A stretch of 64,000 nucleotides of DNA from Myxococcota bacterium (lineage in GTDB: Bacteria; Myxococcota_A; UBA796; JAJRTE01), in NCBI GenBank assembly GCA_024278455.1, contig JAJRTE010000133.1, forward strand, positions 9,658 to 73,657, read 5' to 3'. This document shows, one piece after another, positions 17,192 through 42,596 of the stretch (positions are counted from its first letter, which is position 1; every line of letters begins with the position of its first letter). The notes beneath the pieces were generated by a model that worked only from the letters and a program-made list of their open reading frames with translations, searched no databases and was not told the DNA's origin. The translations under genes and the position numbers were made by a program.

Positions 17192-17267
17192 TGGTGGAGC
17201 TAAGGAGGATCGAACTCCTGACCTCATGACTGCCAGTCATGCGCTCTCCCAGCTGAGCTATAGCCCC
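17192..17267 (-). tRNA. tRNA-Ala (anticodon GGC), CCA encoded
   Basis: Reverse complement GGGGCTATAGCTCAGCTGGGAGAGCGCATGACTGGCAGTCATGAGGTCAGGAGTTCGATCCTCCTTAGCTCCACCA. 7-bp acceptor stem with G3:U70 Ala identity pair. D-loop AGCTCAGCTGGGAGAGC. Anticodon loop CTGGCAG. T-loop GGTTCGATCC-like. Confidence 0.9.
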
Positions 17268-17810: not shown

Positions 17811-19589
17811 ATGAACGAGAAGAGAGGAGTTCGGTCGATATTGCGCGCACACCTGCCAATCATCGTAACCTTGTCCGCCTTCCTTGCCACGACGGCGGGG
17901 ATGAGCGAGCGGTCGCTCGTTGCCGCCGGGCAATCCACGGACGCGCCGGGGGCGCTCTCGAGCGCCGGGTCGGCTTCCGCGCCGCCGGCCGGGCACGATG
18001 AGGACTCGAGCACTCCGGCCCTGCTCGACATCGAAACGGTGCACTTGAGCAACGGGCTGACCGTCATCGTGGCGCCCCAACCGGGACGCCCATCGTTCTC
18101 TGCCACCATCCACTACAAAGTCGGCGCGAGCCGGGAGTGGCAAGGGCTCCTGGGAGCCACGGAACTGGTCGGAAAACTGCTCCTGGACGGCTCTCCGACG
18201 CTGGGAACCCGAAGCCCGCAACGCGAGAAGAGCCTTCTCTACCGGCTCGACCGGCTCGACGCCGAGATCCGCGCAAGATCCTCGGCAGATCATGCCGGTG
18301 CTTCGCCCTCGTTCTCCCCGACGCCGGACCTTGCCAGGCTCCTGGCAACCCGCGACCGGCTCATGACGGAACTCGAGCGGATCTCCAGTGCGGGGGTCTA
18401 CAGCCAGCTCTATCGCGACCGCGGCGCCAGCGGACCGACCGTCCATGTATCGCCCACGGAGGTCCAGGTTCGGGTGACCCTGCCGGCAAACCAGCTTTCC
18501 TACTTCTTCGCCGTCGAAGCCGCACGCATCTCGAGCTTCTCCACGCGCAATTTCTACCTCGAGCGGGAAGCGCTGGCGCGTTCGCGTGCCGAGTCATTCT
18601 CCGATCCCGGATTCCAGCTCATGCAAGGGCTCGTGGCCGAAGCGTTCCACGTCCACCCGTTCGGACGCTATCGCGCGGACCCGGATTCGATACGAGGTGT
18701 CGGCCGGGCCGAACTCGAGTACTATCATCGCCTCTACTTCAAGCCGTCCCAGACGATTGTCGCCATCGCGGGAGGTGTCACTGCGCAGGACGTGCGCAGG
18801 CTGAGCTGGCGATACCTGGGCGCTATTCCGTTTCGGGGCGGCCCTGCCGGACGCCTCGAGCCGGTCGAACCCCCTCAGCAGGGTGAGCGGCGGCTGTACG
18901 TGGGAGGAGCGGACCACGCCGAGGTGCTCCTCGCGTTCCACCTGGATGCAGCGGGTATCGGCCCGGGCGACCCCACCTTGCCCGTGCTGGTCGAACTCCT
19001 CCAGGACCCATGGCTCGGGACCTTCTCCCCCCTGTGGCTCGCCCAGCCAGCCGAGCGTGTTGCCGACCGGATCGTTGCGACCGAGTACCCGCCCTCCCCG
19101 CCCCTGGGAGCAGAGTATCCGAGCCTGCTCATCGTCGGGGCTCGAGCCGCCGGCTCGACGCAGGCAACGAGGCTCGAGGCCGCGCTACGCGAACGACTCG
19201 CCGCGCTTGCTGTCAGCGGTCCTGGCGAAGACGCCGTGGACGCGGCCCGAAAGCGTGCGAGAAGCGCCCTGGCCGAGTCCATGGCTCGCGCTTCCGTCCT
19301 GTCATCCCTGCTCGCTCGAGCCTGTGCCACGACGGGCCGGCCCGAGGCACTCCTGGGCCTGTATGAGGCCATCCCCGGCGTGAGCGCTTCCCGGCTGCTC
19401 GAAGTGGCGAAAACACTGTTTGCTCCCACCAACACGACCGTGGCGGTCATGGCCGGACAAGAGCGGCCGGGCGGCACCGATGGTGGCCCGGCGGTGCGGC
19501 CGGCACCTCGGCCGGATGGTTCGCCCCCCCCTGCCCGTGCCGGAGCCGGGGCGGAGGCGCACGCACCGGCCGGAGAGGGGGTCCAATGA
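17811..19589 (+). CDS. M16 (insulinase/pitrilysin)-like protein, apparently non-catalytic (no HxxEH)
   Basis: TVHLSNGLTVIVAPQPGRPSFSATIHYKVGASREWQGLLGATELVGKLLLDGSPTLG follows the M16 N-terminal domain layout, but the zinc motif is replaced by ATELV. Start chosen at the in-frame ATG (MNEKRG...). Signal/TM segment AHLPIIVTLSAFLATTAG. Confidence 0.5.
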   Translation: MNEKRGVRSILRAHLPIIVTLSAFLATTAGMSERSLVAAGQSTDAPGALSSAGSASAPPAGHDEDSSTPALLDIETVHLSNGLTVIVAPQPGRPSFSATIHYKVGASREWQGLLGATELVGKLLLDGSPTLGTRSPQREKSLLYRLDRLDAEIRARSSADHAGASPSFSPTPDLARLLATRDRLMTELERISSAGVYSQLYRDRGASGPTVHVSPTEVQVRVTLPANQLSYFFAVEAARISSFSTRNFYLEREALARSRAESFSDPGFQLMQGLVAEAFHVHPFGRYRADPDSIRGVGRAELEYYHRLYFKPSQTIVAIAGGVTAQDVRRLSWRYLGAIPFRGGPAGRLEPVEPPQQGERRLYVGGADHAEVLLAFHLDAAGIGPGDPTLPVLVELLQDPWLGTFSPLWLAQPAERVADRIVATEYPPSPPLGAEYPSLLIVGARAAGSTQATRLEAALRERLAALAVSGPGEDAVDAARKRARSALAESMARASVLSSLLARACATTGRPEALLGLYEAIPGVSASRLLEVAKTLFAPTNTTVAVMAGQERPGGTDGGPAVRPAPRPDGSPPPARAGAGAEAHAPAGEGVQ

Positions 19590-22887: not shown

Positions 22888-23220
22888 GTGGAGCCCCTGC
22901 CGCGAACAGGTCACCGGAGAGCAACCGTTGTGGAGAAACAGATCCTGTACCACTCGCCCGATCCTGCCAACTTCCGACGACTCATGTCGCTTTTTTCCCG
23001 CGCCGAGGGCGTGGCTGCGCGGGAGGGGGTCGAGCGGAGTCTTTGCTTCCTGGAGACCATGGATCGTGAGCCGAACGTAGAGGCTCGCTACGACTTCAAC
23101 CTCCTTTACGCCTTCTTCCCCGGCGGGCAGGTCGCGATCAAGACCCCGGCGCTCTGGTGGCAACGGCCGTTCCCGGGCGAAATCGACACCGAGGCCGTCC
23201 GGCAGCCGGGGTGGGCTTGA
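22888..23220 (+). CDS. Hypothetical small protein (110 aa) upstream of the deoxyhypusine synthase-like gene
   Basis: Non-biased composition (VVEKQILYHSPDPANFRRLMSLFSRAEGVAAREG...NLLYAFFPGGQVAIKTPALWW), unlike surrounding GC-artifact ORFs. No known family. Confidence 0.3.
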   Translation: MEPLPRTGHRRATVVEKQILYHSPDPANFRRLMSLFSRAEGVAAREGVERSLCFLETMDREPNVEARYDFNLLYAFFPGGQVAIKTPALWWQRPFPGEIDTEAVRQPGWA

Positions 23221-23279
23221 CACCAAATCCTGAAAGCTGCCATCCGGAACCACGTTCCAGGAAGGGAAGGGAGGACACA

Positions 23280-24434
23280 TTGAAAGATCACGCACCGAGT
23301 GGCGCCGGGACCCGTCAGACCACGGCCGCCTTCCACCGGGAAATGCACGACGGCGCCACGGACGGGCTCACGCCGCTCGAGTCACTCGACATCGACAAGA
23401 TCCGGGATTTCGATCAACTCCTCGAAGCCATGGCCCTCACCGCCTTCGGAGGCCGGAACGTCGGTGAAGCCGCGGAAGTCCTCGAGGCCATGGTCACCGA
23501 CCCGGAGTGCTCGGTCGTGCTCACCCTCTCCGGGGCCATGACGGTCGCCAAGATGGGCCTCGTCATCACGGAGATGATCGAGAGGGGCTGGGTCCAGGTC
23601 ATCGTCTCCACCGGCGCCCTGATGACCCATGGGCTCGTGGAGCTGGCCGGCATGGAACACTACAAGGCCCGCGCCGGCGCTCGAGACGACGAGTTGTTCC
23701 GCTTGGGCTACAACCGGGTCTACGACACTTACGAAATGGAGAAGAATCTCAACGCGCTCGAGCGGCTTCTCGAGGAGGTGTTCCGCACCCTGCCTCGAGA
23801 CCGGCGGTTCGGTAGCAGCGACATCTGCGCGGCCATCGGCCGGTACCTCGACAGGCCCGGCGTGCGAGGCGTCATGGCAGCGGCCCATCGCCGCCAGGTG
23901 CCCATCTACATCCCCGCCTTCACCGACAGCGAACTGGGCCTGGACCTGGCAACGTTCCTGCTCAGGCAGGACATGGCCCGCTCGGGAAGCAGTATCGACG
24001 AGGCACTCAACGTGCTCGAGTCCGCGTTCGACCCGTTCAAGGACCTTGGGCGGTACGCCCGGTTCGTCTCGCGGAGTCCGAGGCTGGGGATCTTCACCAT
24101 CGGGGGCGGGGTTCCCAGGAACTGGGCGCAACAGGGTCCCCCCTTCCTGGACGTGCTCACCACGGCCACGAGCAAGCATGTGCGCCTGAACCGGTTCCGG
24201 TACGGGGTGCGTATCTACCCGGAACCGGTCCACTGGGGAGGGCTGAGCGGGTGTACCTACTCCGAAGGGGTGAGCTGGGGCAAATTCCTCCCTCCCGCAG
24301 AGGGCGGAAGGTACGCGGAAGTCTACGCCGACGCCACCATCGCCTGGCCCATGCTCATCAAGGGCGTCGCCCAGCGACTGGAAAAGAAAGGGAAACCTGC
24401 ACGGCACCCCGACATCGAGAGCCGCGAAAACTAG
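23280..24434 (+). CDS. Deoxyhypusine synthase (DHS) family protein; start uncertain (TTG 23280 after GGGAGG, or ATG 23343)
   Basis: VVLTLSGAMTVAKMGLVITEMIERGWVQVIVSTGALMTHG and QVPIYIPAFTDSELGLDLATFL match DHS core motifs (L..S.....G.R.....L...VDVLVTTAG; NIPVF.PA.TDGS.G). Confidence 0.7.
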   Translation: MKDHAPSGAGTRQTTAAFHREMHDGATDGLTPLESLDIDKIRDFDQLLEAMALTAFGGRNVGEAAEVLEAMVTDPECSVVLTLSGAMTVAKMGLVITEMIERGWVQVIVSTGALMTHGLVELAGMEHYKARAGARDDELFRLGYNRVYDTYEMEKNLNALERLLEEVFRTLPRDRRFGSSDICAAIGRYLDRPGVRGVMAAAHRRQVPIYIPAFTDSELGLDLATFLLRQDMARSGSSIDEALNVLESAFDPFKDLGRYARFVSRSPRLGIFTIGGGVPRNWAQQGPPFLDVLTTATSKHVRLNRFRYGVRIYPEPVHWGGLSGCTYSEGVSWGKFLPPAEGGRYAEVYADATIAWPMLIKGVAQRLEKKGKPARHPDIESREN

Positions 24435-24470: not shown

Positions 24471-27400
24471 CTACTTGTTGCGCATGGCTTCCAGCTTGGC
24501 GCTCAACTCCGGCGACGTGGCGTGGATGGCGGCGCTCATCGTGTACCGCAACTCCTCCATCTCCCGCGCGATGTTGGCGAGCTGCGCCGCGGAATCCGTC
24601 GGGGAGACAGCACGCTCGAGCGCAACCACGGCCCGGTCCAGCCGCTCCGTGATACGATCCAGCCGGCTCACGAACGCTGGCCCGATACCGTCCCCCAGCC
24701 CCTTCCGGATGCCATAGGCCTGGTGCGCCAGCGCCACGAGTGGCCTGTACAAGAGCTTGGGAGCTTCCTCGCGAATCTGCTTCACCTCCATGGCAAGGCT
24801 CTCCAGCCGCCCGCCGAGTTCCTGGGCGGACCCATCAGCGGCCAGTTGCCGCCGGAGCGCATCGATCTGCTCTCCCACGTGGCGAACCTGTACCGCAAGC
24901 ACCCTGTCCACCGCCTCGACGGTGGCCGCGCTCGACCCCTCGATCTGCTGCGCCAACGCCTTGAGCGGCCCGCTCAGATCCTGGTCGACCGACGCGCGGA
25001 TCTCCTTGCCCGCCCTGGCCAACTGCTCCACGAGCGCGGCGAGCGGCCGTGCCAGGTCTTGGGCCAACGACGCCTGGACCCCTTCCCTGGACTGGGCCAG
25101 TTGCTGCTCGATGCCTGCCAGCGACTGCGACACCTCGCCCGATACGGCACGCGCCATCCCCTCCCGCGCAAGGTGCACCTGCTCGACCAGTGCCCCGAGC
25201 GTCTGCCCAAGGTGCTCCGATACGCCCGATTGCACGTCGGACCGGGCCGCCTCGACCTGCCCGACCAGGGCCGCGAGAGGGGCTCCAAGACCATCCGCCA
25301 ACGCGGATTCCAGTCCCCCCTGCGCTCGAGATACCCGCTCCACCAGGGCGGCCAGGGGCGCGTGAATCGCCTCGTTCACCGAAGCCTCGAGGCCGGCATG
25401 GGTCCTGCCCAGCTCCTCGACAAGCTGGTCCAACCTCGCCGCCAGGGTGTCCACCACCGACGCACCAGTGTCGCCGACGCCCGAGACTACCCGCTCCCCC
25501 AGTGCAGCGAGCGGCATGCCGACCTCGGCATGGACGGCCTTGGACCAGTCGGCCGACGCCGCCTCTAGCTGCTCGGCCAGCGCGCTCAACGGCCCGCGCA
25601 CGTCCTCGCTCACCGCCGCCTTCACGCCCGCACGGGCCGCCTCTAGCTGCTCGGCCAGCGCGCTCAACGGCCCGCGCACGTCCTCGCTCACCGCCGCCTT
25701 CACACCCGCACGGGCCGCTTCTAGCTGCTCGACGAGAGAGGTGAGAGGCTTGTGGAGATCGTTGGCGATCGATGCGTCGATGCCCTGACCCACCTCACCA
25801 ATCTGGTGGACGAGAGCGTCGACGCGGGCGACGAGTTCGTGGCGCACCGGGTCGTCGATGCTGGATCTTACGTCTCTCACCTCCTGGACCAGTGCACCAA
25901 GGGGTGAAAGGAGCCGGGTGACGGGGTCATCCTCCTTGCCACCCATCATCTGGAGCCGGCCGTAGGATTTCTTGATCTCGTTCCACCTTTCGGCCTGGGT
26001 CTGGGTGAGTGTTCCGCGGAGTTCGGCGAACTTGAGGAGGTTCTGTTCGGCGCCGGAGGTGAGCGTCTGTGCCTCGCCGACGTAGTGATCCTCGATCACG
26101 GCCTCCAGTTCCTCGTCGTTCATGACCGGAACGATCTTTTCGGCGATCTTGTTCATGTTCCGGTAGCTTCCCTGGAGCTTGAACGGTGGCTCGGTACGGT
26201 ACTCCTCGGCCTGGGAAGCGCTGGCGATGTACTGGCGATTGACCTCGAGGACGGTCTTCTGCACAACGAAGAGCTTTTGCAAGACCGAGAGGATCTCGTC
26301 CAGTTCAGCCTGGGTGTAGTCGTGGGCCAGGTCGGTCCTGGCGATCTCCCGTCCTCGCGCCATGTCTATCAGGAGGTAGATGTCCTTGGGGTCGCGTGAG
26401 GCCAGCGGGGCGAGCACGGGGTTGGAGGTAAGAGCGTTCTCGACGTAGCTCAGCTCGAACACGGCCTCCTTGCCCTGGAGGATGTCGCCGAGGTTGTAGG
26501 TATCGGCCCGGTTGGCCAGCATGTCGGGGATCTGGAACTTTTCGCCCGACTCGGTGTAGGGATTGCCGGCCATGACCACGCAAAAACGCTTACCCCGGAG
26601 ATCGTGGGTGCGCGTTCTCCCCCGCCAGACGCCCTCGATCTTGCGCTGGGCGTCGCACAGCGAAATGAACTTCTGGAGGAACTCTGGATTGGTATGCTGG
26701 ATGTCATCGACATAGAGCATCACGTTGTTGCCCATCTCCAGCGCGAGATTGAGCTTTTCGACTTCCTGCCGTGCAGTCGCGTTGGGCGCCTCGCCCGGGT
26801 CGATGGAGGTGACCGCGTGCCCCATGGCGGGACCGTTTATCTTCATGAAGATGAGGCCAAGGCGGTTGGCGACGTACTCCATCAGGGTGGTCTTGCCATA
26901 CCCCGGGGGAGAGATGAGCAGGAGCATGCCCATCAGGTCGGTACGCTTGCCTGCGCCGAGCGCGCCCATCTGCTTGGCCAGGTTGTCGCCGATGAGCGGG
27001 AGGTAGACCTCGTCGATGAGCCGGTTGCGCACGAACGAGGTGAGGACTCGGGGCCGGAACTCGTCGAGACGAAGGGCGGTCCTCTCCCGCTCGATGATCC
27101 GCTGCCGGAGCTTCCTGTAGGCACGAAAACGAGGTACGACCTCCTGGACGTAGTCTCCCAGGCGCGTAAGGAACTCGTCGAGCCGCAAGGTCATGCGCCC
27201 CTTGCGTATGCGGCCGTGCTGGCCGAGCAGCCCCGTGACGACCGTGGTCCCGGCCGCGTTCGAGGGGGCACGCTCGATGCGGGTGTCGGTGAGCAGCCAG
27301 GCGGCGGTCTCGGGTGCGGCAGGAGCCAGGGCGCGCGTCTCCTCGTCCTCGGCGGCCTCGAGAACGGCGTCGATCCACGCGATGGCCAGATGGTAGCGCC

Positions 27401-30400
27401 CGGCCAAGTCCTCTTCCAGCGCCTGCAGGTCGGCAAGCACGGCTTCCCGGTGCCCGTGGCGGTCGAGCTGCTGGAGCAACCGGTCCTTGAGCTTGACGGC
27501 TTCGTCGGCGAGCGCGAACCGGGGTTTGGGCGCGGCCAGTTCCTCTGCCAGGTAGTTCCCGGTCCGTTCGGCATCCGCCTCCCCGACCGCCAGCCCCTGC
27601 TTCCGGAGGAATCCGGCCGCCTGGGTCCCAAGGTCGTGGGCGAACCGGGCGAACTCCGGGGAGTGTTCGAAAGCGTCACGAAGGCGCCCGAGGTTGCGCG
27701 CCTTGAGCACGAGGCGGGACCTGGCCTTGTCGTCGTCGAACGCGGCCCAGAAGAGCGCCGCGAACGCCCGTGCTCGAGGCGGGTACTTGAGCAGCCCGGC
27801 GTCGGCGCGCATGGCGAGCAAGGCCTCGAGAATGATGGCGGCGTCGGCGTCGTGGACGCCCCGTTCATATCCCTCGTCGTAGCGTGACTCTGCATACTTC
27901 CTGACAAGGTTCAGCAACCCGTCATCCTGGCCGGTGGCGGCGCGGAGTGCGGTGAACGAGAGGTCGTTGGCGCGACTCTCGGCGTCGAAGAGAATCGATG
28001 CGGCGAGGAACTCGCCTCGATAGACCTGGTCATTCTCGGACACGAGCGCCTGGTCCCAGAAGGGACGGGTCGCCTCGAGTTCCGGGTCCTCGATGGGGTC
28101 GTAGAAGTCGGTGCCGGTGAGATGGATCATCATGCGTCCATCTCGAGGCATCAGGGTCAGATCCATGGGCTCGGTGTTGACCGTGAATCGGTGTCTTCCG
28201 AGCCTGATGGCATTATCCTCGTCGAAGAGGTAGGCACGGTCCCGCTGTGCTCGAGCGGCTTCCTGGGTGGAAGACTTGAGCTTGCCGAGGAGTTCGTCGG
28301 CCTTGACGCCTTCCCCCATCTCGCGCAGGTCGGACGCGATGTCGCGGACCTTGGCGACCATGGGGTCGGAGACGAAGAATGTGTTGAGTTCTTCGGATGT
28401 CTTGAACGCCGATGCCCGGCGGACTATCCCCTCGAGGATGCGGTCCGCGGCCTTGAGCATGTTGTGGGAACGGCGCTGCCGTTCCTCGAGGAGGCCCTGC
28501 TTGCGGGTCTCGAAAGCCTCGTAGACTTCGGCGCGCTTGGCGGCCAGGTCGTCGAGGAACTGGTCGAACTCGCCGAAACGGGTCTCGAGCTGTTCCAGTT
28601 GTACGGTAAGGCGGGAGAGCTGTTCGTCGCACTTCTCCGGCGTGTCGCAGGCGGCCAGGCTGTTGGCGACGCTCTGGCCGAACAGCTTGAACTCGACGCC
28701 GAACTGGGCAACCCCTTCTGCGCCCAGCAGCTCCTTGTAGGTGCCGTCGACGTGGGCCTTGGTGCGGTTGAGCTGGGCGTAGACCTCGGAGACGCGCTCG
28801 AGGATCCGGGTGCGAACGGTCGGGTCGTCGACCTTGAGCCCGCTGATGATCTCGGTGAGAACGTCGAACCCTGTCCCGATTCTCTCGACGGCCTCCTTGA
28901 GAGGGAGGAGGTCGGCCGTCTTCTCGATGCCTTCCACCTGTTCGTGGATGGCGGCGATCTCGTGCTTGTACGGGTCGAGGGAGTCGTCCCCCAGGAGGAA
29001 CTCGACGGTTGCCTTGCTGAGTGCCTCGAACTGTTCCCGAGCCTCGGTCTCGAGCCGGTCTATCTCGGCTACGTCGATGTAGCGCAGCTCCCTGAGAGAG
29101 AAGAGGAGGCCCATCTGGCGGCGCCAGGCGGTGAGGGTGTCGACATACTGCCTGGCCTCGCTCCACCCGCTGGGGCTGGAATCCCTGCGCAGCTCCGTCT
29201 GTGCCCTTTCTGCTTCGAGCAGGGCCTGCCGGGAGCGCTCGCGGATCGCAAGGACCTTCTCGAACTCGTCGATGATCTTCTCAGCGGTGGAGAGGGCAGC
29301 CTTGAGGGTGCCCAGCATGTCCCCGACTTCCTCGGCGCCGAGCCAGTAGTAGGTGTCGATGGTGCGATGGATGGCAGCGATGAGGTCTTCATAGACCTGG
29401 ACCGTCGGCTGCTGATTCTCGATCATGCGGACGACGGTATTGACGTCGGAGATCCCCCTGACCAGTTCGGGGTTGCCCACCTTGCCGAGGAACGAGGTGT
29501 CCTGGGGCGCCTTGGCAGCGAACTCGTCGCTCTCGAACGGGGTCTGCCACACCTGCATGGGGTGCACACGGGTAGGCTCGGCGGAATCGTAGCGGAAGAC
29601 GATCATCCTCCCGTCCTCGAATATGCTGTATCCGTGGACGGATATGGGATTCTGCACCTCCTTGCGGATCAGGTTGTACGGGAGGAGGATCGAGAGTCCA
29701 TCCTTCGATTCGTAGAAGGTATAGAGGACATCCTCCCCGTTGGGGGAACGCACCACTGACTCGAACTTGAGGTTCTCCGCCTCGGTGGCGAAGATCCGGG
29801 TCTCGCCGGTATTGAGGTAGTACCCGCCCGGAAAGATGATCCCGTGGTCGCCCGGGAGCTGAATGCACGCGAGACCGATGGCGTCGATGCGCTTGACGTC
29901 CTGGGTGCGGGTGTTGAACACGAAATAGCGATAGGCGTCCTCCCGGTAGGGGCGCACCTTGAGGAGGATCAGGACGCCGACCTCGGCATACTGTATGTCG
30001 GCGTCATCCAGGGACTGGTGGAGGTCTTCCACGGGCTCGGCATAGATGCCTTCCCCGGTCTCGGTGCTGTCCTCCACCTTGATGGTCAGGTCTCCACCGG
30101 TGGTCTCCACGAAGACCTTGTCGAGGATCGAGACATGGGGAAAGCGCCCGAGGACGTGGTCTTCGCGGGTCGCTTGCGTCCACTCGAAATCGTGGGGAGG
30201 AGGGAAGCGATAGTCGCGCTCGCCCCGGTTGTCGATGTACTTGACGCTGCCATCGGGCTCGACGGCCCACCGCAGGACCTTCACGTCACGTTCCGAGTCC
30301 CCGGTCTTGAACACCGCGAGCATTTGCAGTTCGTTGCGGAGCAGGTGGACGAGTTCGGCGTCCTTGTAGTACCGATAGAGTTCGCCGAAGTCCCGAACGA

Positions 30401-30584
30401 ACTCGGGATCATGGAGGAAGTCGTTCTCGTCCTGGGGGATGCGCTCCAACTCGGGGCCGTTCTCGGTATCCACGAGACGATGGAGGCTGAACACGTCCTC
30501 CACGTCGGTCTGGCGCTTGAGCCCCAGGAACACGTTGTAGCCGAACAGCAGCCTGTCGCCGAGGGGCACGATGTCTCGAGGCAC
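24471..30584 (-). CDS. Giant (~2037 aa) multidomain protein: ~1150-aa N-terminal region of unknown fold, central MoxR/dynein-type AAA+ ATPase domain, C-terminal ~600-aa coiled-coil region of ~26-aa tandem repeats
   Basis: Walker A LLLISPPGYGKTT. Walker B VMLYVDDIQH. MoxR-like sensor region FCVVMAGNPYTESGEKFQIPDMLANRADTYNL. C-terminal repeats PLSALAEQLEAARAGVKAAVSEDVRG ×~12, including a perfect 78-nt tandem duplication at 25561-25716. Start is GTG at 30582-30584, 3 codons after an in-frame TAG. Confidence 0.75.
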   Translation of the reverse strand: MPRDIVPLGDRLLFGYNVFLGLKRQTDVEDVFSLHRLVDTENGPELERIPQDENDFLHDPEFVRDFGELYRYYKDAELVHLLRNELQMLAVFKTGDSERDVKVLRWAVEPDGSVKYIDNRGERDYRFPPPHDFEWTQATREDHVLGRFPHVSILDKVFVETTGGDLTIKVEDSTETGEGIYAEPVEDLHQSLDDADIQYAEVGVLILLKVRPYREDAYRYFVFNTRTQDVKRIDAIGLACIQLPGDHGIIFPGGYYLNTGETRIFATEAENLKFESVVRSPNGEDVLYTFYESKDGLSILLPYNLIRKEVQNPISVHGYSIFEDGRMIVFRYDSAEPTRVHPMQVWQTPFESDEFAAKAPQDTSFLGKVGNPELVRGISDVNTVVRMIENQQPTVQVYEDLIAAIHRTIDTYYWLGAEEVGDMLGTLKAALSTAEKIIDEFEKVLAIRERSRQALLEAERAQTELRRDSSPSGWSEARQYVDTLTAWRRQMGLLFSLRELRYIDVAEIDRLETEAREQFEALSKATVEFLLGDDSLDPYKHEIAAIHEQVEGIEKTADLLPLKEAVERIGTGFDVLTEIISGLKVDDPTVRTRILERVSEVYAQLNRTKAHVDGTYKELLGAEGVAQFGVEFKLFGQSVANSLAACDTPEKCDEQLSRLTVQLEQLETRFGEFDQFLDDLAAKRAEVYEAFETRKQGLLEERQRRSHNMLKAADRILEGIVRRASAFKTSEELNTFFVSDPMVAKVRDIASDLREMGEGVKADELLGKLKSSTQEAARAQRDRAYLFDEDNAIRLGRHRFTVNTEPMDLTLMPRDGRMMIHLTGTDFYDPIEDPELEATRPFWDQALVSENDQVYRGEFLAASILFDAESRANDLSFTALRAATGQDDGLLNLVRKYAESRYDEGYERGVHDADAAIILEALLAMRADAGLLKYPPRARAFAALFWAAFDDDKARSRLVLKARNLGRLRDAFEHSPEFARFAHDLGTQAAGFLRKQGLAVGEADAERTGNYLAEELAAPKPRFALADEAVKLKDRLLQQLDRHGHREAVLADLQALEEDLAGRYHLAIAWIDAVLEAAEDEETRALAPAAPETAAWLLTDTRIERAPSNAAGTTVVTGLLGQHGRIRKGRMTLRLDEFLTRLGDYVQEVVPRFRAYRKLRQRIIERERTALRLDEFRPRVLTSFVRNRLIDEVYLPLIGDNLAKQMGALGAGKRTDLMGMLLLISPPGYGKTTLMEYVANRLGLIFMKINGPAMGHAVTSIDPGEAPNATARQEVEKLNLALEMGNNVMLYVDDIQHTNPEFLQKFISLCDAQRKIEGVWRGRTRTHDLRGKRFCVVMAGNPYTESGEKFQIPDMLANRADTYNLGDILQGKEAVFELSYVENALTSNPVLAPLASRDPKDIYLLIDMARGREIARTDLAHDYTQAELDEILSVLQKLFVVQKTVLEVNRQYIASASQAEEYRTEPPFKLQGSYRNMNKIAEKIVPVMNDEELEAVIEDHYVGEAQTLTSGAEQNLLKFAELRGTLTQTQAERWNEIKKSYGRLQMMGGKEDDPVTRLLSPLGALVQEVRDVRSSIDDPVRHELVARVDALVHQIGEVGQGIDASIANDLHKPLTSLVEQLEAARAGVKAAVSEDVRGPLSALAEQLEAARAGVKAAVSEDVRGPLSALAEQLEAASADWSKAVHAEVGMPLAALGERVVSGVGDTGASVVDTLAARLDQLVEELGRTHAGLEASVNEAIHAPLAALVERVSRAQGGLESALADGLGAPLAALVGQVEAARSDVQSGVSEHLGQTLGALVEQVHLAREGMARAVSGEVSQSLAGIEQQLAQSREGVQASLAQDLARPLAALVEQLARAGKEIRASVDQDLSGPLKALAQQIEGSSAATVEAVDRVLAVQVRHVGEQIDALRRQLAADGSAQELGGRLESLAMEVKQIREEAPKLLYRPLVALAHQAYGIRKGLGDGIGPAFVSRLDRITERLDRAVVALERAVSPTDSAAQLANIAREMEELRYTMSAAIHATSPELSAKLEAMRNK
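25561..25716. repeat. Perfect 78-nt tandem duplication (2 full units plus a partial third) inside the giant ATPase coiled-coil region
   Basis: gcctctagctgctcggccagcgcgctcaacggcccgcgcacgtcctcgctcaccgccgccttcac(g/a)cccgcacgggcc repeated head-to-tail. It encodes the identical 26-aa unit twice. Confidence 0.8.
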
Positions 30585-30593
30585 GCAGTTGTG

Positions 30594-30812
30594 CTAGGTG
30601 CGGACCCGTGTGTTCCCCAGAACCGTGAGGGTCGTGGCGCCGAACTTCTCTTGCCGCCTCCGGTTGAGAGCAGCAGCCTTCTCGCTCAGCTCCCGGGCGT
30701 GCGCGACGAGCCGGTCACGGATGATCTCGTAGTTCCCCGCGTCGATGGCTCCGCCCGCCGGGGCCCGGGTATCTGTCTGCTCAATCTCGGGTGACTTGTC
30801 CATGGCACGCAC
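30594..30812 (-). CDS. Small ORF (72 aa) in the same frame as the giant ATPase, separated by one TAG; a separate small gene or a disrupted/extended N-terminus
   Basis: MRAMDKSPEIEQTDTRAPAGGAIDAGNYEIIRDRLVAHARELSEKAAALNRRRQEKF... Coordinates from the ORF track show the stop at 30594-96 and the next start codon at 30582-84, in the same frame. Confidence 0.3.
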   Translation of the reverse strand: MRAMDKSPEIEQTDTRAPAGGAIDAGNYEIIRDRLVAHARELSEKAAALNRRRQEKFGATTLTVLGNTRVRT

Positions 30813-30947
30813 TCACACGTTGGTGCACTAATGGTGGATGCCGGTCGAACCGGCCGGGCGGCGGATTGCACGAAGCAACCCCACCACCGGCTTCGCCTGC
30901 CGGCCGGTTCCAAGGCGAGGCACGGGACCGCCGCACGCGGCCCCGCC

Positions 30948-33053
30948 CTACCCTGCTGGCTGGTCGAGCCCCAGCTTCCGGGCATGCTCGAGAAGGCTCG
31001 AGAGCTTCTCCTTGCTGGCCTCGTCCTTGGTTCCGGCAACCATCCGCGCCAGGAACGCGGATATCGAGAGCTGCTGCAAGGACTCGGCGTCCACGGCAGG
31101 ACGACTCAGCACGGCCTTGAGGTCGTCCGGCAGGCTCTTCTCGCCGCTCAGGTACTCCTTGAACAGGGTCCGCGTCGATTCGCTGGCATCGACGAACCCG
31201 TCGATGGACTTGCCCAGGGTGATGGCCTTGGTGAACTGGTCGAAGAAAGCGCCGTCCCCACCGACGATGTGGAAGTTGGCCGACTTGAAGGCCTGGCCCA
31301 GGATCTCCGCCTGGTACCGCGCAATCTCCTGCTGCGCCTCGATCGCCTTCACCTTGACCAGCTTGTTCATCTCGAGCCGCAGGCGGAACTCCTCGTGCTC
31401 GCGGCCTACGCCGTCGAGGAGCTTCATGGCCTCGGCCTTCTGGGAAAGACCCGCCGCCTCGGCGGTCAGTTTCGCCTGGATCGCCACCGATTCCGCCGTT
31501 CCCTTCTTCTCTATCGCAACCGCTTCGGCTTCCTGGACTCGAGCACGCGCAAGGCCCTGCTCCTCTTCGCCGGTCGCCTGGGCCTTCATCCTTTCCTGCA
31601 AGGCACGGGCTTCGGCAAGGCCTTGCTTCTCCAGCGCCGCCGCCTTGGCTTCCATGACCGTGGCTTCGGCAAGACCGGAAGCAGCCTGCTCCGCCTGAAG
31701 CCCTTCGGCCAGCCTCGCCCTGGCCTTGGCTTGCTTCTCCGCCGCTCCCATCTCCGCCTCGGCCAGCGTAATCTGCTCCCGCGCCTTGCACTTGGCAGCC
31801 TGTTCCTTCGCCTCCGCCTCCTTGAGTTCCTTCACCAGATTCTCTTGCGCCTCGGCCTCCGCGCCAAGGATGGCCGTCTCCTTCAGACGCTTCGCCTCCG
31901 CGATCGCACGCAGGTCCTTGATCCGCTCCTCCTCCTCGGCCACGGTCTTCTCCACCGCCACCCGCTCGCGAACCACGTCCTGGATCTCTTTCTGCTCCTT
32001 CTCGACCACCTTCTGCTTCTCGAGGGTCTTGACAGCCACTTCCCGCTCCCGCGCAACCGCCTCGAGCGCCCGATCCTTCTCCACTCGCTCGGTCTCGATG
32101 GCAATCACGCGCTCACGATTCTTCTGCGCCACCTCCACCTGCCGCTGCTTGTTCTCGGTGGCTATCTCGATCTCCTCCTGGGCCCGAAGCTTGGCCTGCT
32201 CCGCCCGCTGCCACTCCTCGGCACGGACCTTGGCCGTCTCGGCCTCCTCCCGGGCCTTCATGGTCTCGATCTCCCGCACCTGCTTCGCCTCGGCATCAGC
32301 CTTCTGCCGATCGAGCGCCAGGATGGCTTCCTGGGTCTCCACGTCCTGCTTCTTGATCTGCTTCTCTTCGTTGTTCCGGGTCAGGTTGGTGTGGATGTGC
32401 TGCTCGGCGGTGAGCTGCGTGATCTTCCGGATACCCTGCGAGTCCAGGATGTTCTCCGGATCGAGCTTCGAAACCGGGGTCTGCTCCAGGTAGTCGATCG
32501 CAGCGTCCTCGAGCACGTAGCCATTCAGGTCCGTACCGATTACCGCGATGATCTGATCCTTGAACGAGTCCCGCTCCTGGTACAGGGAAACGAAGTCCAT
32601 GCGCTTCCCCACGGTCTTCAACGCCTCGGAAAACTTCGCACTGAACAACTCCTCGAGGGTTTCTTGCTGCGACGCTCGCTCGCACCCGATGGACATGGCC
32701 ACCTTCAGCACATCCTCCTCGGTCTTGTTGACCCGGACAAAAAAGGTCACCTTGATGTCCGCCCGAATGTTGTCCTGGCAGATCAGACCCTCCTTGCTCG
32801 TCCGGTCGATCTCGATGGTCTTCACCGAGATGTCCATGACCTCGGCTTTGTGAATGACCGGAAGCACGAGCCCGCCGGTGAACGATACCGTTGTGACACC
32901 ACCGGTCTTGTTTATGATCAACGCCTTGCCCTGCTCCACTTTTCGGTAGAACTTCTTGATGAGCAACAAGAAGCCGAACCCGAAGATGGAGAGGGCGGCG
33001 ATAACCACAACCACCGCAACAATGACAGGCAGATAGTTTTCCAAAGGACCCAT
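30948..33053 (-). CDS. Flotillin (SPFH/band-7 domain) with long EA-rich coiled coil, FloT/YqiK-like
   Basis: N-terminal TM MGPLENYLPVIVAVVVVIAALSIFGFGFLLL. SPFH core (ALIINKTGG...VLPVIHKAEVMDISVKTIEI...ICQDNIRADIKVTFFVRV). Roughly 350 aa of AEAKxxREIE-type coiled coil. Flotillin C-terminal region. Confidence 0.85.
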   Translation of the reverse strand: MGPLENYLPVIVAVVVVIAALSIFGFGFLLLIKKFYRKVEQGKALIINKTGGVTTVSFTGGLVLPVIHKAEVMDISVKTIEIDRTSKEGLICQDNIRADIKVTFFVRVNKTEEDVLKVAMSIGCERASQQETLEELFSAKFSEALKTVGKRMDFVSLYQERDSFKDQIIAVIGTDLNGYVLEDAAIDYLEQTPVSKLDPENILDSQGIRKITQLTAEQHIHTNLTRNNEEKQIKKQDVETQEAILALDRQKADAEAKQVREIETMKAREEAETAKVRAEEWQRAEQAKLRAQEEIEIATENKQRQVEVAQKNRERVIAIETERVEKDRALEAVAREREVAVKTLEKQKVVEKEQKEIQDVVRERVAVEKTVAEEEERIKDLRAIAEAKRLKETAILGAEAEAQENLVKELKEAEAKEQAAKCKAREQITLAEAEMGAAEKQAKARARLAEGLQAEQAASGLAEATVMEAKAAALEKQGLAEARALQERMKAQATGEEEQGLARARVQEAEAVAIEKKGTAESVAIQAKLTAEAAGLSQKAEAMKLLDGVGREHEEFRLRLEMNKLVKVKAIEAQQEIARYQAEILGQAFKSANFHIVGGDGAFFDQFTKAITLGKSIDGFVDASESTRTLFKEYLSGEKSLPDDLKAVLSRPAVDAESLQQLSISAFLARMVAGTKDEASKEKLSSLLEHARKLGLDQPAG

Positions 33054-33122
33054 AGGCCAAACCCCCGATATGTTGTTGATCCTACTGGCATTCCATGGTG
33101 TTTCCCCAAAACCGGCTGGAAA

Positions 33123-34034
33123 TCAGGACGTTGCAGAGTCGTCCCGCTCCCGCCTCTCCACCGGCACCCCCCGCACCGGCTCGGCACCTCGCTCGGCCAA
33201 GCCCTGCCCCACCCGCGGCAACGGCTCAACCTGGTAGAACCCGGACTTCCGGTCGTACCCCACTATCAAGGCCTCGCTGCCCTTGCTCAGGTCGTTGTCC
33301 CGAGGACACCGGACCTGCAGGAGCAACCCGGCGGCTCCGTCATCGTACTCGCCCATGCCGAACGTCCTGTCCACCCTGAGACTCCGTATCCGGCACGTCC
33401 TTCCGACCAGGGTGCCCTCCACCCGCGTGGTCTCCCTCTCGAACAACCGCTCCAGGGGACGAACGGTGAACGATGTCGCCGGGACCGCCAGGCCCAGCCC
33501 GGCCACTCCCACAACCGCCGCAGCCAGCGCGAACAGGATCCCCCCGAACCCGCCCCGGAGAATCCCGAACGACCCCATGAAGGTGAAGAGCCACGACCAG
33601 AGAACCAAAACGCTGAGCACCACGGTCACGGGCACCTTGCCCACGCGGAGAAAGGCCAGTAGACCCGCCACCGCACCTGCACCCTCGATCGACCCCTCAG
33701 CGCTCCCCTCGACCGCGCCGTCCGCGGCGCCTTCCACCACGCCGTCCGCGGCGCCTTCCACCACGCCGTCCGCGGCGCCTTCGAGCACGCCGTCCGCGGC
33801 GCCTTCGAGCACGCCGTCCGCGGCGCCTTCCAGCACGCCGTCCGCGGCGCCTTCCAGTACGCCGTCCGCGGCGCCTTCCAGCACGCCGTCCGCGGCGCCT
33901 TCGGCACTGCCGCCGAGACCCTCGATGTCGAGGGCACCGAGGATGACCAGGATCCAGTAGCCGAGCACGGTGCCGAGCAGCGTAGTGAACAGCACGGTCG
34001 GCAAGGACAAGGCGATCTGGAGGAACTCGATCAT
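33123..34034 (-). CDS. NfeD/YqiJ-like membrane protein with internal (GAADGV[LV]E)n 8-aa tandem repeat and C-terminal OB-fold-like domain
   Basis: TM helices (LSLPTVLFTTLLGTVLGYWILVILGAL; VTVVLSVLVLWSWLFTFMG). C-terminal TLVGRTCRIRSL...GLLLQVRCPRDNDLSKGSEALIVGYDRKSGFYQVEPL is NfeD-like. Immediately upstream of, and codirectional with, the flotillin gene (classic nfeD-flotillin pairing). Confidence 0.6.
   Translation of the reverse strand: MIEFLQIALSLPTVLFTTLLGTVLGYWILVILGALDIEGLGGSAEGAADGVLEGAADGVLEGAADGVLEGAADGVLEGAADGVLEGAADGVVEGAADGVVEGAADGAVEGSAEGSIEGAGAVAGLLAFLRVGKVPVTVVLSVLVLWSWLFTFMGSFGILRGGFGGILFALAAAVVGVAGLGLAVPATSFTVRPLERLFERETTRVEGTLVGRTCRIRSLRVDRTFGMGEYDDGAAGLLLQVRCPRDNDLSKGSEALIVGYDRKSGFYQVEPLPRVGQGLAERGAEPVRGVPVERRERDDSATS
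33700..33920. repeat. Perfect/near-perfect 24-nt tandem repeat (~8-9 units) within the nfeD-like gene
   Basis: gccgtccgcggcgccttcca(c/g)cac repeated head-to-tail. Only the 3rd/6th codon positions vary (His/Gln/Glu codon), giving GAADGVLE/GAADGVVE. Confidence 0.8.
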
Positions 34035-34258: not shown

Positions 34259-35923
34259 GTGCACGTCCTACGTCACAGACATTCGACAGCCATTGTCCTG
34301 CTGGGGTTGGTGGTTGCCCAACAGCGGGGGGAGCTGGGGGCTCAGGAGACGGAGATGTCTCTTTGTTCAGACCCTGTCGATACGTCGGCGGGCCTGGTAT
34401 CAGGGGTCCTGGAAGAGGAGACGGGGACCTGCAATTGGAAAGGGGTGCCGTTCGCCGCGCCCCCGGTGGGTGCCCTGCGATGGCGCCCGCCAGCCCCTCC
34501 CGGCACCTGGGACGGCATCAGGGATGCGACCGAGTTTGCGCCCCGCTGCATGCAAACGGGTGTAATGTTCGCGGTCAACGCGGACCCGAGCGGGTCGATG
34601 TCCGAGGATTGCCTGTTCCTGAACATCTGGCGCCCGGTGGAACCCGCGGAACCCCTCCCGGTCCTGGTCTGGATTCACGGGGGCGGCTACAGCGGGGGCA
34701 CCCCGAACACGCCCATGTACCATGGGGGCAACCTGGCGTCTCGAGGCGGGCTCGTGGTGGTATCGGTGGCTTACCGGCTGAACATTTTTGGATTCTTCGC
34801 GTCGGAGGCCCTGGTCGAGGAGGACCCGGGTGGGTCCGCGGGCAACTACGGCCTTCTGGACCAGATCGCCGCCCTGGAGTGGATCCGGGACAACATCGGG
34901 GCGTTCGGCGGGGACCCGTCCCGGGTGACGGTGATGGGGGAGAGTGCCGGCGGGTGGTCGGTATGCAACCTGCTGGCGACTCCGCTAGCCAAGGGACTTT
35001 TCCACCGGGCCATCATGGAAAGCGGCGGCTGTCACGACGCCACGACGATGGATCGGGGCTTCGAGGTATCGACGGAGGCCGCGGGCCGGCTCGGGCTGGA
35101 CCCGAACGACCTGGAAGGACTCCGGGCGGTGAAGGCCAAGAAGCTCCTGCGCCGGGGGGTGGAGTGGGAAAACGCCGGTTTCAAGTGGCTTCCGCGCATC
35201 GACGGCGTGGTGCTGGCTGCGCAACCCATCGACATCCTCGAGTCCGGGGACTACAACAGCGTCCCCCTCATCGCCGGGGCGAACCGGGACGAGGTCAACG
35301 ACACGGTGTATCTCCATCCGTTCCAGTTCTTCCACGGCCAGAAGCGGTATCGCAAGCGTCTCGAGAAGATGTTCGGGGCGGACGCCGCACCACAGATCTC
35401 CGCGCTCTATCCTCGAGATGCCTTCGACCGTACCGTGCACGCCTACCAGAAGGTCACCACCGACGTGGCCCTGCTGTGCCCGACGATGGCCGGGGCTCGA
35501 GCCGTCGCCGCCCACCAACTGGATGTCTGGCTCTACCGTTTCGACTACGACGACTTCCGGTTCGGGGGCATGCTCGGCGCCTTTCACGGCTCGGAACTCC
35601 CGTTCGTGTTCGGCAATTTCGACGGGTGGCCGGCACGCATGTTCTTCAACAAGCGCCGAGCCAGGCACGCCGCCCCGCTCTCGGACACCATCATGGACTA
35701 CTGGATCAGGTTCGCACACCGGGGCGACCCCAACGGTCCCGGCGCCACGACCTGGCCGAGCCTGGCCGAACAGAACAGCTTCATGCGGTTCGACGAAATC
35801 CCGGAGGTGAAGCCGCTGACCGAACAGGCCATCGCGCGCTGCACCTTCTGGCGCGCGTATGCGGACGAGAACCCCTGGATCGTGGAGACGTTGGGCATCG
35901 TCGGCCACGCGCCCGGGGGTTAG
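34259..35923 (+). CDS. Carboxylesterase type B (para-nitrobenzyl esterase-like), secreted
   Basis: EDCLFLNIWRP, GGGYSGG, GESAGG (nucleophile elbow), LLDQIAALEWIRDNIGAFGGDP. Signal peptide AIVLLGLVVAQQ. Confidence 0.85.
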   Translation: MHVLRHRHSTAIVLLGLVVAQQRGELGAQETEMSLCSDPVDTSAGLVSGVLEEETGTCNWKGVPFAAPPVGALRWRPPAPPGTWDGIRDATEFAPRCMQTGVMFAVNADPSGSMSEDCLFLNIWRPVEPAEPLPVLVWIHGGGYSGGTPNTPMYHGGNLASRGGLVVVSVAYRLNIFGFFASEALVEEDPGGSAGNYGLLDQIAALEWIRDNIGAFGGDPSRVTVMGESAGGWSVCNLLATPLAKGLFHRAIMESGGCHDATTMDRGFEVSTEAAGRLGLDPNDLEGLRAVKAKKLLRRGVEWENAGFKWLPRIDGVVLAAQPIDILESGDYNSVPLIAGANRDEVNDTVYLHPFQFFHGQKRYRKRLEKMFGADAAPQISALYPRDAFDRTVHAYQKVTTDVALLCPTMAGARAVAAHQLDVWLYRFDYDDFRFGGMLGAFHGSELPFVFGNFDGWPARMFFNKRRARHAAPLSDTIMDYWIRFAHRGDPNGPGATTWPSLAEQNSFMRFDEIPEVKPLTEQAIARCTFWRAYADENPWIVETLGIVGHAPGG

Positions 35924-40622: not shown

Positions 40623-42596
40623 TCATTCCACGTAGATGACGAGATCGAGGAAATCGCAGCCGCCCTCGGAGCAGTGCATGCCCACACGACCAGAGCGGAC
40701 CATCGTGTCGGCACTGCCCAGGTGGACCGTGTTGCCCCCGTAGGTCAGGTCGAAATAGGCGCCCGAGGAGTCCATCTCCACCGACAGGTCGTAGGTCTCG
40801 TTCTGCCAGGTGCCGGTGTTTTCGATGTCCAGGATCTGGGAGGCATTCTTGGTGATGGAGGGACAGGTGTCCCCGTGGGAGCACTGCGCTCCCTGCTGCG
40901 CGTCATAGGGGTCGCTGAGGAAGAATGCGTAGCCGAACGTGGGGCCCCACGCGGAAAACCCGGTGCCGAAATCGATACCGATCCTCGGCCCGGCATCGTT
41001 CCACCGGTCCGTGTAGAGCGACAGGTCGATTCGAACGAGGGAGGCGTTGTCCACCAGGAAGTTGTACCAGCAGACGATGTCCCTATTGTCCGGACACCAG
41101 ACGCTGAGCGCCCCGTCCACGATCCCGTCGTTGGTGCACCCATTGGTCTCGCAGACCAGATGGCTCATGACGTCCGGATCGTCGAACGAGATCACGGTGG
41201 TGCACGGGCCGTAGTCGCCGTCACAGTCCTGGTCCACGTCGTCGCAGGCTTCCGGCGCGTCCGGATGGATCTCCGCGTCCCCGTCGTCGCAATCACCGGC
41301 AGGGTCGCCAGATTGCGCTTCCCCGCTGTCGAGGCAAGACGTGTCGTCAGACGCCACCACGGACGTGTCATCCGGCCGATAGCCATCCCCGTCCTCGTCC
41401 ACGTAGCAGGTCTCGGTACCGTCGCAGTCTTCGTCGACGCCGTCTCCCACCACTTCCGTGGCGCCCGGGTGGATGTCAGGGGCTCCGTCATCGCAGTCGG
41501 TGGCATCGGCCACGTGGCCGACCGGCGCGCCGCACGCCAGGGCTTCCGTGCCAGGATCCCCGTAGCCATCTCCGTCGGCGTCCGCGTAGAACACCTCGAG
41601 AACGCCTTCATCGATATCGCCGTCGCAATTGTCGTCCTTTGCGTTGCACGTCTCTTCCGCCAACGGATTGACGCCGGGATCCTGGTCGTCGCAGTCGCCG
41701 TCCGCGGCGACAAAGCCTTCCGGTGCCTCGCAGGCCTGGGCCGCCACGTCCGCGGTGCCGAAGGCGTCGCCGTCACTGTCCTGGTAGAAGGTCGCCAACA
41801 CACCCTCGTCCACATCCAGGTCACAGTCGTTGTCCCGACCGTCGCACACCTCATCGGCCCCGGGATGGCTCGAGGCGTCGCTGTCATCGCAGTCGTCCCC
41901 GTTTGGAACGCATGTCTCGCACAGTTCGCACGCCGTGCCAGCCTCGATCGGATCACCGTACCCATCTCCATCGAGATCGTAGTGGAAGGGCAAGGCGTCC
42001 ACAGCGTCGTCCTCGTCGATCGTCCCGTCACAGTCGTCGTCCTCGCCGTTGCAGCGTTCGTCCGCGCCGGGATACTGGAGGGGGTCGCCATCGTCGCAGT
42101 CGAGCGCCGCGACGGCCCCGTCTCGATCCAGGTCCACCGCAGGCGTCGAGGTCGGCGGCACCGGCGTGGGGGTCGGCGGCACCGGCGTGGGGCTCGGCGG
42201 CACCGGGGTTGGGGTCGGCGGCACCGGGGTCGAGGTCGGCGGCTCCGGCGTGGGGGTAAGGGGCGCTGCGGTCGGGGCCGGGGGAACGACCGTCGGCGTT
42301 GCCGGTTCCGGCGTGGGCGCGACCGGGTACGGTGATGGTGTCGCAGCCTGAAGCGGGGGGGTCGGCGCGGGTGCAGAAGGCGTGGGTGTGGCCGACCCCG
42401 CGGGCGGCGTGACAGTCGGAGATACGACCACCTGGGTGGGCGTTGCCGCGGCCGGGGTGGGCGAACGCACAGGCGCGGGAGACACGGGGGGACTCGAGGC
42501 ATCGTCGTCCGACGTATCAGGGCAACCGGTCAGAGCAAAGCAGGTTGCGAGCGTCAGGACTCGGCGGGCACGATGGAGCCATCTCCAGGAAAACAT
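40623..42596 (-). CDS. MopE-like Cys-rich metal-binding-repeat lipoprotein with Pro/Thr-rich linker and C-terminal beta-sandwich-like domain
   Basis: Lipobox [10 protein letters not shown]. Roughly 130-aa PT-rich linker ([20 protein letters not shown]). At least 6 repeats of DCDDxDxxxxPGAxExCDGxDxDCDG. 657 aa. Confidence 0.55.

Follow-up and report, generated by a model that had tools for sequence, protein, structure and literature searches.

Operons in which a flotillin gene lies beside the genes of an NfeD-type membrane protein and of a large ATPase have already been described, and here we report on such a locus on the minus strand at positions 24471-34034 of a stretch of 64,000 nucleotides (nt), hereafter the window, from a Myxococcota bacterium (assembly GCA_024278455.1, contig JAJRTE010000133.1). 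Ravi et al. (2024, mSystems, PMC11237479) described operons joining CesT/Tir-PspA to three further components, a flotillin, an ATPase and a three-transmembrane (3TM) protein of the YqiJ/YuaF type; some of these operons also carry a PLD/HKD hydrolase. According to the same study, abbreviated operons made of flotillin and YqiJ/YuaF genes, sometimes with the ATPase gene, are more widely distributed and may act with a PspA protein encoded elsewhere.

In Pseudomonas aeruginosa, genes of this kind belong to the 'biofilm-associated cluster' bacABCDEF, whose co-transcription was observed by reverse transcription PCR and for which a sigma54 promoter was proposed from sequence (PMC10948618). All downstream products are increased 6- to 13-fold in a bacA mutant, and phenotypes concerning biofilm, rhamnolipids and virulence are on record for bacA and bacB (PMC10948618). 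Deletion of the flotillin gene, paFlo3, was reported to cause ~20% less biofilm and no stress phenotype, and the distribution of the operon within Pseudomonas was found to be patchy (PMC13086221). Concerning the ATPase itself we found no paper in the literature searched, and nothing functional came up on DUF3686, on PA3728, or on flotillin together with either 'DNA repair ATPase' or MoxR.

The window carries a three-gene nfeD-flotillin-ATPase operon

ORF (open reading frame) calling on the window gave four co-directional minus-strand ORFs at 24471-34034, as announced in the original prediction, which had been made from the letters of the window, and their translations fit its description. However, that prediction counted four genes, one of them a separate gene of 72 codons, and we find three, because the small ORF belongs to the ATPase gene, whose 5' end a TAG codon cuts off. 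The first gene (33123-34034, -) encodes an NfeD/YqiJ-type membrane protein of 303 amino acids (aa). After a gap of 69 nt it is followed by the gene of a flotillin-type SPFH protein of 701 aa (30948-33053, -), and a second gap of about 135-144 nt separates the latter from the 72-codon ORF or ATPase 5' end. The bulk of the giant ATPase gene, with 2037 codons, occupies 24471-30584 (-). The G+C content at third codon positions (GC3) is 0.84-0.86 in all three long ORFs, which argues that they are real coding frames.

We compared these products with those of P. aeruginosa, where the gene order is DUF2170, PspA_IM30, a 213-aa protein, a 688-aa protein, a 1746-aa DUF3686 ATPase (P0131, whose 90%-identity cluster holds 3222 sequences), PLDc_2, yaeQ, recJ and an M4 protease. 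The NfeD-like protein is 27% identical (E=1e-17) to the 213-aa protein encoded between the PspA and SPFH genes, the flotillin is 53% identical over 640 aa to the 688-aa protein, and the giant ATPase is 51% identical over 1607 aa to P0131. By gene order we take the P. aeruginosa ATPase to be PA3728. The order corresponds to bacA-bacF (PA3732-PA3727 / PA14_16140-16200; PMC10948618), and the sequence comparison shows that the three genes of the window are orthologous to bacC, bacD (paFlo3) and bacE (PA14_16190). The bacA (DUF2170), bacB (PspA) and bacF (PLD) genes have no counterpart in the window, and the phenotypes known for the cluster belong to bacA and bacB, not to the three genes in common.

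The prediction had stated that this combination corresponds to no known system, which the above comparison contradicts. Judged by its gene content, the locus is the abbreviated form of the operons of Ravi et al. (PMC11237479): the three proteins, the architecture of each and their adjacency are the same, and our own survey reproduces the wide distribution which that study states for the abbreviated operons. It differs from the full proteobacterial form in having neither the CesT/Tir (DUF2170)-PspA dyad upstream nor the PLD/HKD gene downstream. Unlike the published operons it also has a nonsense codon in the ATPase gene and lineage-specific repeat expansions in the ATPase tail and in a loop of the NfeD-like protein. 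We hold the identity of the module with high confidence: it is a known though functionally unsolved module, not a new system, to which the window adds a myxobacterial member with an interrupted ATPase gene.

The module is widespread and its gene order is conserved

The giant ATPase has 6595 relatives in the protein database at E<=1e-10, with 55-59% identity to the query in its first ~77%, and across phyla the identity over the first ~1560 aa is 51-59%. Named relatives are called 'DNA repair ATPase', 'MoxR-like ATPase' or hypothetical. The DUF3686 domain is found in 619 representatives at the 50% clustering level; among the best 150 of these it is almost always N-terminal in full-length proteins (~1600-2000 aa).

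We then scanned one genome per species and obtained at least 570 loci; the neighbourhood counts given here and below refer to the best 80, which come from Myxococcota, Actinomycetota, Gamma- and Betaproteobacteria and others. A flotillin gene lies directly upstream of the ATPase gene, on the same strand, in 78/80 loci with the N-terminal query and in 79/80 with the C-terminal query, and the loci missing it are contigs which end <=560 nt from the ATPase gene. An NfeD gene is present upstream of the flotillin gene in 72/80 loci by query and in 74/80 by clustering. Unbiased clustering of all ORFs of the 80 loci gave exactly three near-universal families, the ATPase (80), the flotillin (78) and NfeD (74), and in the window as in the survey loci they are adjacent and co-directional in the order nfeD, flotillin, ATPase. 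The claim that these genes form one conserved unit is thus borne out, the giant-ATPase homologues of related genomes being syntenic with flotillin and NfeD genes.

The next commonest real families are DUF2170 (YjfI/CesT-like) and PspA/IM30, directly upstream of nfeD in 19/80 loci, all proteobacterial, and a PLD/HKD gene follows the ATPase gene in 10/80; the PspA, DUF2170 and PLD profiles match only proteobacterial loci of the set. No PspA gene was detected within 10 kb in any Myxococcota or Actinomycetota locus of the survey, nor among the window genes scanned around the operon. Beyond flotillin and NfeD, the 80 loci contain no further conserved neighbour. A von Willebrand factor A (vWA) partner, which had been suggested as a check because it is typical of MoxR ATPases, is conserved nowhere in the 80 loci and does not stand beside the operon in the window.

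As regards mobile elements, none of the 50,697 phage records and only 13 of the 72,556 plasmid records, mostly megaplasmids or chromids, matched the family. One of these plasmids is pQBR103, a P. fluorescens megaplasmid (L082, NC_009444.1 85617-101005), on which a yjf-like operon of PspA, rhomboid, DUF2491, DUF350, DUF1190 and glutathionylspermidine synthase genes leads directly into the genes of a 217-aa protein (in the NfeD position), an SPFH protein and a 'DNA repair ATPase'; this is a third arrangement which joins the triad to PspA. Altogether, the comparison of genomes indicates that nfeD-flotillin-ATPase is a widespread, vertically well-conserved bacterial module.

The 72-codon ORF is the interrupted 5' end of the ATPase gene

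The 72-codon ORF (30594-30812, -, as called from a GTG start at 30812) and the giant ORF share one frame and are split by a single TAG codon at 30594-30596. The codons between them are TAG-CAC-AAC-TGC, giving the reading ...GNTRVRT*HNCVPRDIVPLGDRLLFGY. Positions 1-32 of the DUF3686 profile (PF12458) fall on residues 41-72 of the small ORF and positions 38-448 on residues 2-413 of the giant ORF; the small ORF encodes the N-terminal helix and the first beta-strand of DUF3686, and it aligns with the N-termini of all compared homologues. From the profile match and these N-termini we place the 5' end of the ATPase gene at 30597-30803 (-), that is 69 codons from an ATG at 30803.

In 12/12 inspected homologues, from several phyla, the region of the stop reads RT(E/D/Q)(N/H)NC(V/I/L/T)P(R/Q)DI, with Glu at the stop position in 10/12, and a single base change, GAG to TAG, suffices for the stop. 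One ORF spans this point in 79/80 related loci, where it starts 141-333 nt upstream of the start of the window's long ORF. In addition, full-length homologues (~1600-2000 aa) generally have 55-100 residues before the giant-ORF start, among the best-matching 50%-identity representatives. Since the two ORFs are in frame, the PF12458 match carries on from the one into the other and the homologues read through the position of the TAG, the 72-aa ORF is the beginning of the ATPase gene rather than a gene in its own right, and annotations should not list it as one.

An intact gene would encode ~2110 aa, with the TAG at codon 70; the window does not hold an uninterrupted ATPase reading frame. A reassignment of the stop codon was rejected, as TAG is the normal stop of both the flotillin and the ATPase genes, and so was a suppressor tRNA, as the only tRNA in the window is a tRNA-Ala(GGC); the TAG is thus a plain nonsense codon in the assembly. 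Downstream of it the 2037 codons are free of further stops and frameshifts, GC3 is 0.85 and every family-invariant residue is kept, so that the change must be very recent unless it is an error of one base. We conclude that in this genome the ATPase gene has either been inactivated recently or contains a sequencing error at a single base. One 86-kb NCBI contig is the only known source of the sequence, and the corresponding NCBI protein (P0001, 2032 aa, 100% identical) has its annotated start after the TAG.

It could be that the locus is decaying as a pseudogene in this organism and that the module does nothing here. The in-frame TAG so early in the gene, the absence of an obvious ribosome-binding site before the downstream GTG codons, the loss of 76 residues which include the helix and first beta-strand of the DUF3686 fold, and the intact state of the gene in 79/80 other loci all point in that direction. 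Against it stand the intact NfeD and flotillin genes, the open and well-conserved remainder of the ATPase gene, and the fact that the change would be very recent or an assembly error of one base on a single contig. We consider this decay possible rather than probable, and in practice the annotation of the ATPase gene should warn of a possible pseudogene or sequencing error.

Among the 80 loci just one (L055, ORFs of 294 aa and 1275 aa) also has a split ATPase gene; it comes from an uncultured Actinoplanes, and the split may be an assembly artefact of this metagenome-assembled genome.

Architecture of the giant ATPase

Residue numbers below are those of the 2037-aa ORF. The protein begins with DUF3686 (aa 2-413, 29346-30581, -; E=6e-191), a beta-propeller-like domain followed by a helical bundle, for which the Pfam title is 'ATPase involved in DNA repair'. 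An Ala/Leu/Arg/Glu-rich helical region of ~760 aa, reaching to aa ~1180, comes next and contains DUF7902 (aa 534-617, 28734-28985, -; E=1.8e-25). The N-terminal region of ~1150 aa, which had been taken as uncharacterised, therefore contains two recognised families, both of unknown function. For the structure of the N-terminus we modelled an intact homologue (P0002); the DUF3686 model has a predicted local distance difference test (pLDDT) score of 85 and matched propeller folds. The protein thus has the described form of a large AAA+ ATPase with an N-terminal helix or coiled coil and a beta-propeller.

A single AAA+ ATPase core follows at aa 1221-1346 (26547-26924, -). The three motifs named in the prediction were found in it, namely the Walker A GYGKTT (aa 1228-1233, 26886-26903, -), the Walker-B-like DDIQH (aa 1293-1297, 26694-26708, -) and AGNP (aa 1339-1342, 26559-26570, -), and they are invariant in 20/20 aligned homologues. 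AAA_5, a dynein/MoxR-related model, is the best match of the core in 18/18 family members, with E values of only 1e-5 to 1e-8 (best 1.3e-8), and is the only Pfam model spanning the whole core (2-127 of 139 profile positions). The matches of PF00004 and RuvB_N are limited to the P-loop half of the core, that of RuvB_N being weak (E about 1e-4 to 3e-5). Searches of PDB sequences with the giant protein and with a profile of its AAA region hit Cdc48/p97/NVL and RuvB over ~35 residues around Walker A only. The AlphaFold model of aa 1080-1600 was poor (pLDDT 65), and with it Foldseek found RuvB, p97, HslU, ClpX, NorQ and MCM at low TM-scores. These matches indicate only that the ATPase region is predicted to have an AAA+ fold and do not settle its clade; among them NorQ has the best target-normalised TM-scores.

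The label 'MoxR/dynein-type' which had been given to the protein is a reasonable, if weakly founded, description of the core alone. What it would have in common with MoxR ATPases (RavA, NorQ, CbbQ) is a single core of the AAA_5 type, going by the weak profile match, and an 'AGNP...IPDMLANRAD' segment after the sensor-1 strand. It departs from them in that no vWA partner accompanies it, in that its core is embedded in a protein of ~2100 aa with a propeller and long helices, and in that the Walker B motif, hhhhDE in MoxR proteins, ends in Asp-Asp. A dynein-like architecture is not seen: dynein and midasin motors concatenate several AAA modules, and here there is one P-loop/AAA region. The Asp-Asp pair, in which Asp replaces the usual catalytic Glu, is invariant in the same 20 homologues, from several phyla, suggesting unusual ATPase kinetics across the family. 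No hydrophobic segment was detected in the giant protein (maximum KD19 1.33), unlike in the flotillin and NfeD proteins.

Behind the core, homologues remain conserved over a helical region up to aa ~1560, and the last ~480 aa (aa ~1560-2037) form a variable tail; alignments with homologues end after the first 77-80% of the protein. Offsets of 26, 52, 78 and 104 stand out in the tail, which contains ~12 Pro-punctuated 26-aa helical repeats at aa ~1587-1900 (24885-25826, -) and, in the DNA, a 78-nt tandem repeat of 2.2 copies at 25558-25731. The periodicity that had been proposed is therefore real, and its extent is ~310 aa instead of ~600. The hydrophobic moment of the repeat is modest (0.26) and we do not claim lipid binding for it. 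With a reconstructed length of ~2110 aa, as compared to a median of ~1750 aa in the 80 loci, the protein has an unusually long tail. The window's own additions to the module are this long 26-aa-repeat tail, the nonsense-interrupted ATPase gene and a 65-aa octapeptide insertion in the NfeD-like protein.

The NfeD-like protein and the flotillin

In the NfeD-like protein we observed ~3 hydrophobic segments (about aa 5-41, 121-159 and 156-191), in agreement with the prediction, and the layout is a first transmembrane segment, an acidic repeat loop, at least two more transmembrane segments and a soluble C-terminal domain. Its match to YqiJ_N is weak (E=1.4e-3, under the Pfam cut-off); it is nevertheless a multi-transmembrane protein of the YqiJ/YuaF type (short NfeD) adjoining an SPFH gene. 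The loop holds the GAADGVLE octapeptides that had been noticed, encoded by a 24-nt tandem repeat of 7.8 copies at 33716-33902 (-). They form an insertion of ~65 aa (aa ~45-108) after the first transmembrane segment, absent from the P. aeruginosa orthologue, which shows a gap there in the pairwise alignment. Compared with PDB sequences, the repeats gave only a non-significant likeness (E~0.4) to the octapeptide beta-helix of the T4 gp5 needle.

The assignment of the second protein as an SPFH flotillin was likewise confirmed. A Band_7/SPFH domain is detected with E=4e-11 when aa 1-250 are searched alone; the whole 701-aa query gave no Pfam match, the Pfam 'Flot' C-terminal model did not match, and a PDB sequence search returned nothing. 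One N-terminal hydrophobic segment (aa 1-36) precedes this domain, and an Ala/Glu-rich region (aa 241-545; A 22%, E 20%) forming a long coiled coil leads to the C-terminal domain. This succession of transmembrane segment, Band-7/SPFH domain and coiled coil is that of the flotillin in the operons of Ravi et al. (PMC11237479).

Possible function of the module

SPFH proteins form membrane-attached cages to which NfeD proteins bind, and HflK/C cages house the AAA+ protease FtsH. HflK/C-FtsH and QmcA-YbbJ serve us as a working analogy: in the present module, too, an SPFH protein has an NfeD partner, and there is a genetic coupling between an SPFH assembly and an AAA+ machine. The giant ATPase differs from FtsH in having no transmembrane segment and no protease domain, in belonging to another AAA+ lineage and in its size of ~2100 aa, and its link to the SPFH protein is a genetic one.

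By this analogy, the flotillin and its NfeD/YqiJ partner would form an SPFH cage or microdomain at the inner membrane, on its cytoplasmic side. The giant protein, which is soluble, would dock there by its beta-propeller/helical N-terminal part or by its helical tail, and its single AAA_5-like ATPase, presumably oligomeric, would assemble, disassemble or load protein assemblies. The role would be the maintenance of the envelope or membrane under stress, and the co-encoded PspA polymer would be one of the clients in Proteobacteria. The observations behind this scheme are the strict linkage of a soluble AAA+ giant to membrane SPFH and NfeD proteins, the recurrent joining of the triad to PspA operons in Proteobacteria, and co-transcription and co-regulation in one species, P. 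aeruginosa.

Taken as a whole, we favour the view that the locus is the known three-gene operon nfeD/yqiJ-flotillin-giant DUF3686/AAA+ ATPase and that it may serve a flotillin/NfeD-docked, ATP-driven remodelling in envelope stress. The mechanism considered by itself, in which the ATPase docks on the flotillin/NfeD assembly and remodels it or its clients by ATP, is tentative, and possible rather than probable. Several points weigh against it: it is gene linkage only which suggests that the ATPase may bind flotillin, NfeD or PspA; the model of the AAA region is of low confidence (pLDDT 65); given the invariant Asp-Asp, ATP turnover may be slow or regulatory; the paFlo3 deletion led to just ~20% less biofilm and to no stress phenotype (PMC13086221); and with its ATPase ORF interrupted, the module may not function in this genome.

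The idea can be carried further. We know of no energy-consuming partner, and of no such ATP-driven motor, for bacterial flotillins or PspA. The DUF3686-AAA+ giant might be this missing motor, remodelling membrane-scaffold polymers in bacteria by ATP and being in its function an analogue of Vps4 or FtsH: docked on flotillin/NfeD cages and, where present, on PspA/ESCRT-III polymers, it would drive their assembly or disassembly during membrane repair, the Pro-punctuated tail being a spacer or a lattice element; in this full form we regard the proposal as rather improbable.

Alternatively, the ATPase could work in the manner of Vps4 and mainly take apart polymers of the PspA/ESCRT-III type; flotillin and NfeD would then only recruit it to the membrane, and in lineages such as the present one it would act on a PspA encoded elsewhere. 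The DUF2170-PspA dyad upstream of the triad in 19/80 loci and in P. aeruginosa, and PspA also on pQBR103, would fit such a role, and according to a review no Vps4-like ATPase is known for bacterial PspA (PMC7619361). However, the universal partners are flotillin and NfeD, not PspA, which is missing within 10 kb in the Myxococcota and Actinomycetota loci and among the scanned window genes. The core, moreover, looks AAA_5-like rather than like that of classical Vps4 proteins, and the Pfam search gave no MIT domain. A role centred on PspA is thus unlikely.

The prediction had also considered a defence machine, which would be an anti-phage or other conflict system tied to membrane microdomains. 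The large size of the ATPase, its variable and repeat-rich tail and the patchy distribution within Pseudomonas (PMC13086221) would be compatible with it, and in PADLOC the tail weakly resembles the coiled-coil region of ZorA (E=3.5e-7). This match is confined to the helical tail and does not concern a MotA-like channel, and PADLOC finds nothing for the flotillin or NfeD proteins. The flanking genes are housekeeping genes and are not conserved, a nuclease, protease or other effector is not universally linked in the 80 loci, and the family is absent from the 50,697 phage records and nearly so from the plasmid records (13/72,556). The first ~1560 aa are 51-59% identical across phyla, unlike fast-evolving defence genes. 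We consider a defence function very improbable.

A role in DNA repair, for which speak the Pfam title of DUF3686, the NCBI name, the weak RuvB_N matches to the P-loop and the recJ gene lying two genes downstream in P. aeruginosa, is hardly credible, since no DNA-binding, nuclease or helicase domain was found with Pfam and NCBIfam, the RuvB likeness is generic to AAA+ proteins, the only conserved neighbours encode two membrane proteins while the recJ adjacency is not conserved, and the literature searched makes no use of DUF3686, or of 'DNA repair ATPase' together with flotillin.

The remodelling role at flotillin/NfeD assemblies remains our preferred reading, and it concerns a module that is highly conserved and very widespread, with >6000 database relatives, >=570 species matches in one scan and a place in the P. 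aeruginosa core genome, of which the largest component bears a misleading name, 'DNA repair ATPase'. As bacterial flotillins and PspA have, to our knowledge, no energy-consuming partner, the strict three-gene linkage is a testable lead. This lead is already in the literature (PMC11237479), and to answer what the ATPase does would be worth much more than the additions made by the present window.

Borders of the operon and neighbouring genes

Upstream, the operon is bordered by a divergent carboxylesterase gene (34259-35923, +) and, downstream, a convergent gene of the deoxyhypusine-synthase family (23157-24434, +) ends 36 nt from the ATPase gene; being flanked in this way, the transcription unit cannot extend further. 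A scan for consensus promoters and terminators gave matches at chance level only. Deoxyhypusine synthases are a spermidine-using enzyme family. Homologues of the window's flanking genes, deoxyhypusine-synthase-like or carboxylesterase, occur in none of the 80 related loci, so that the adjacency of the former to the ATPase gene looks coincidental. We note as a separate observation that polyamine genes are often coupled to PspA-linked operons (PMC11237479), as on pQBR103.

Farther from the operon, the tRNA-Ala(GGC) gene (17192-17267, -) lies inside 16001-18000, where GC is 0.597 against ~0.65 and which is the one part of the window clearly poorer in GC, and with the GC3 filter used no high-GC3 ORF was found between 15965 and 23157. 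Two proteins with multiple Cu-binding_MopE repeats, unrelated to the operon, are encoded at 14682-15965 (-; E=1.7e-30) and at 40623-42596 (-; E=1.3e-40).

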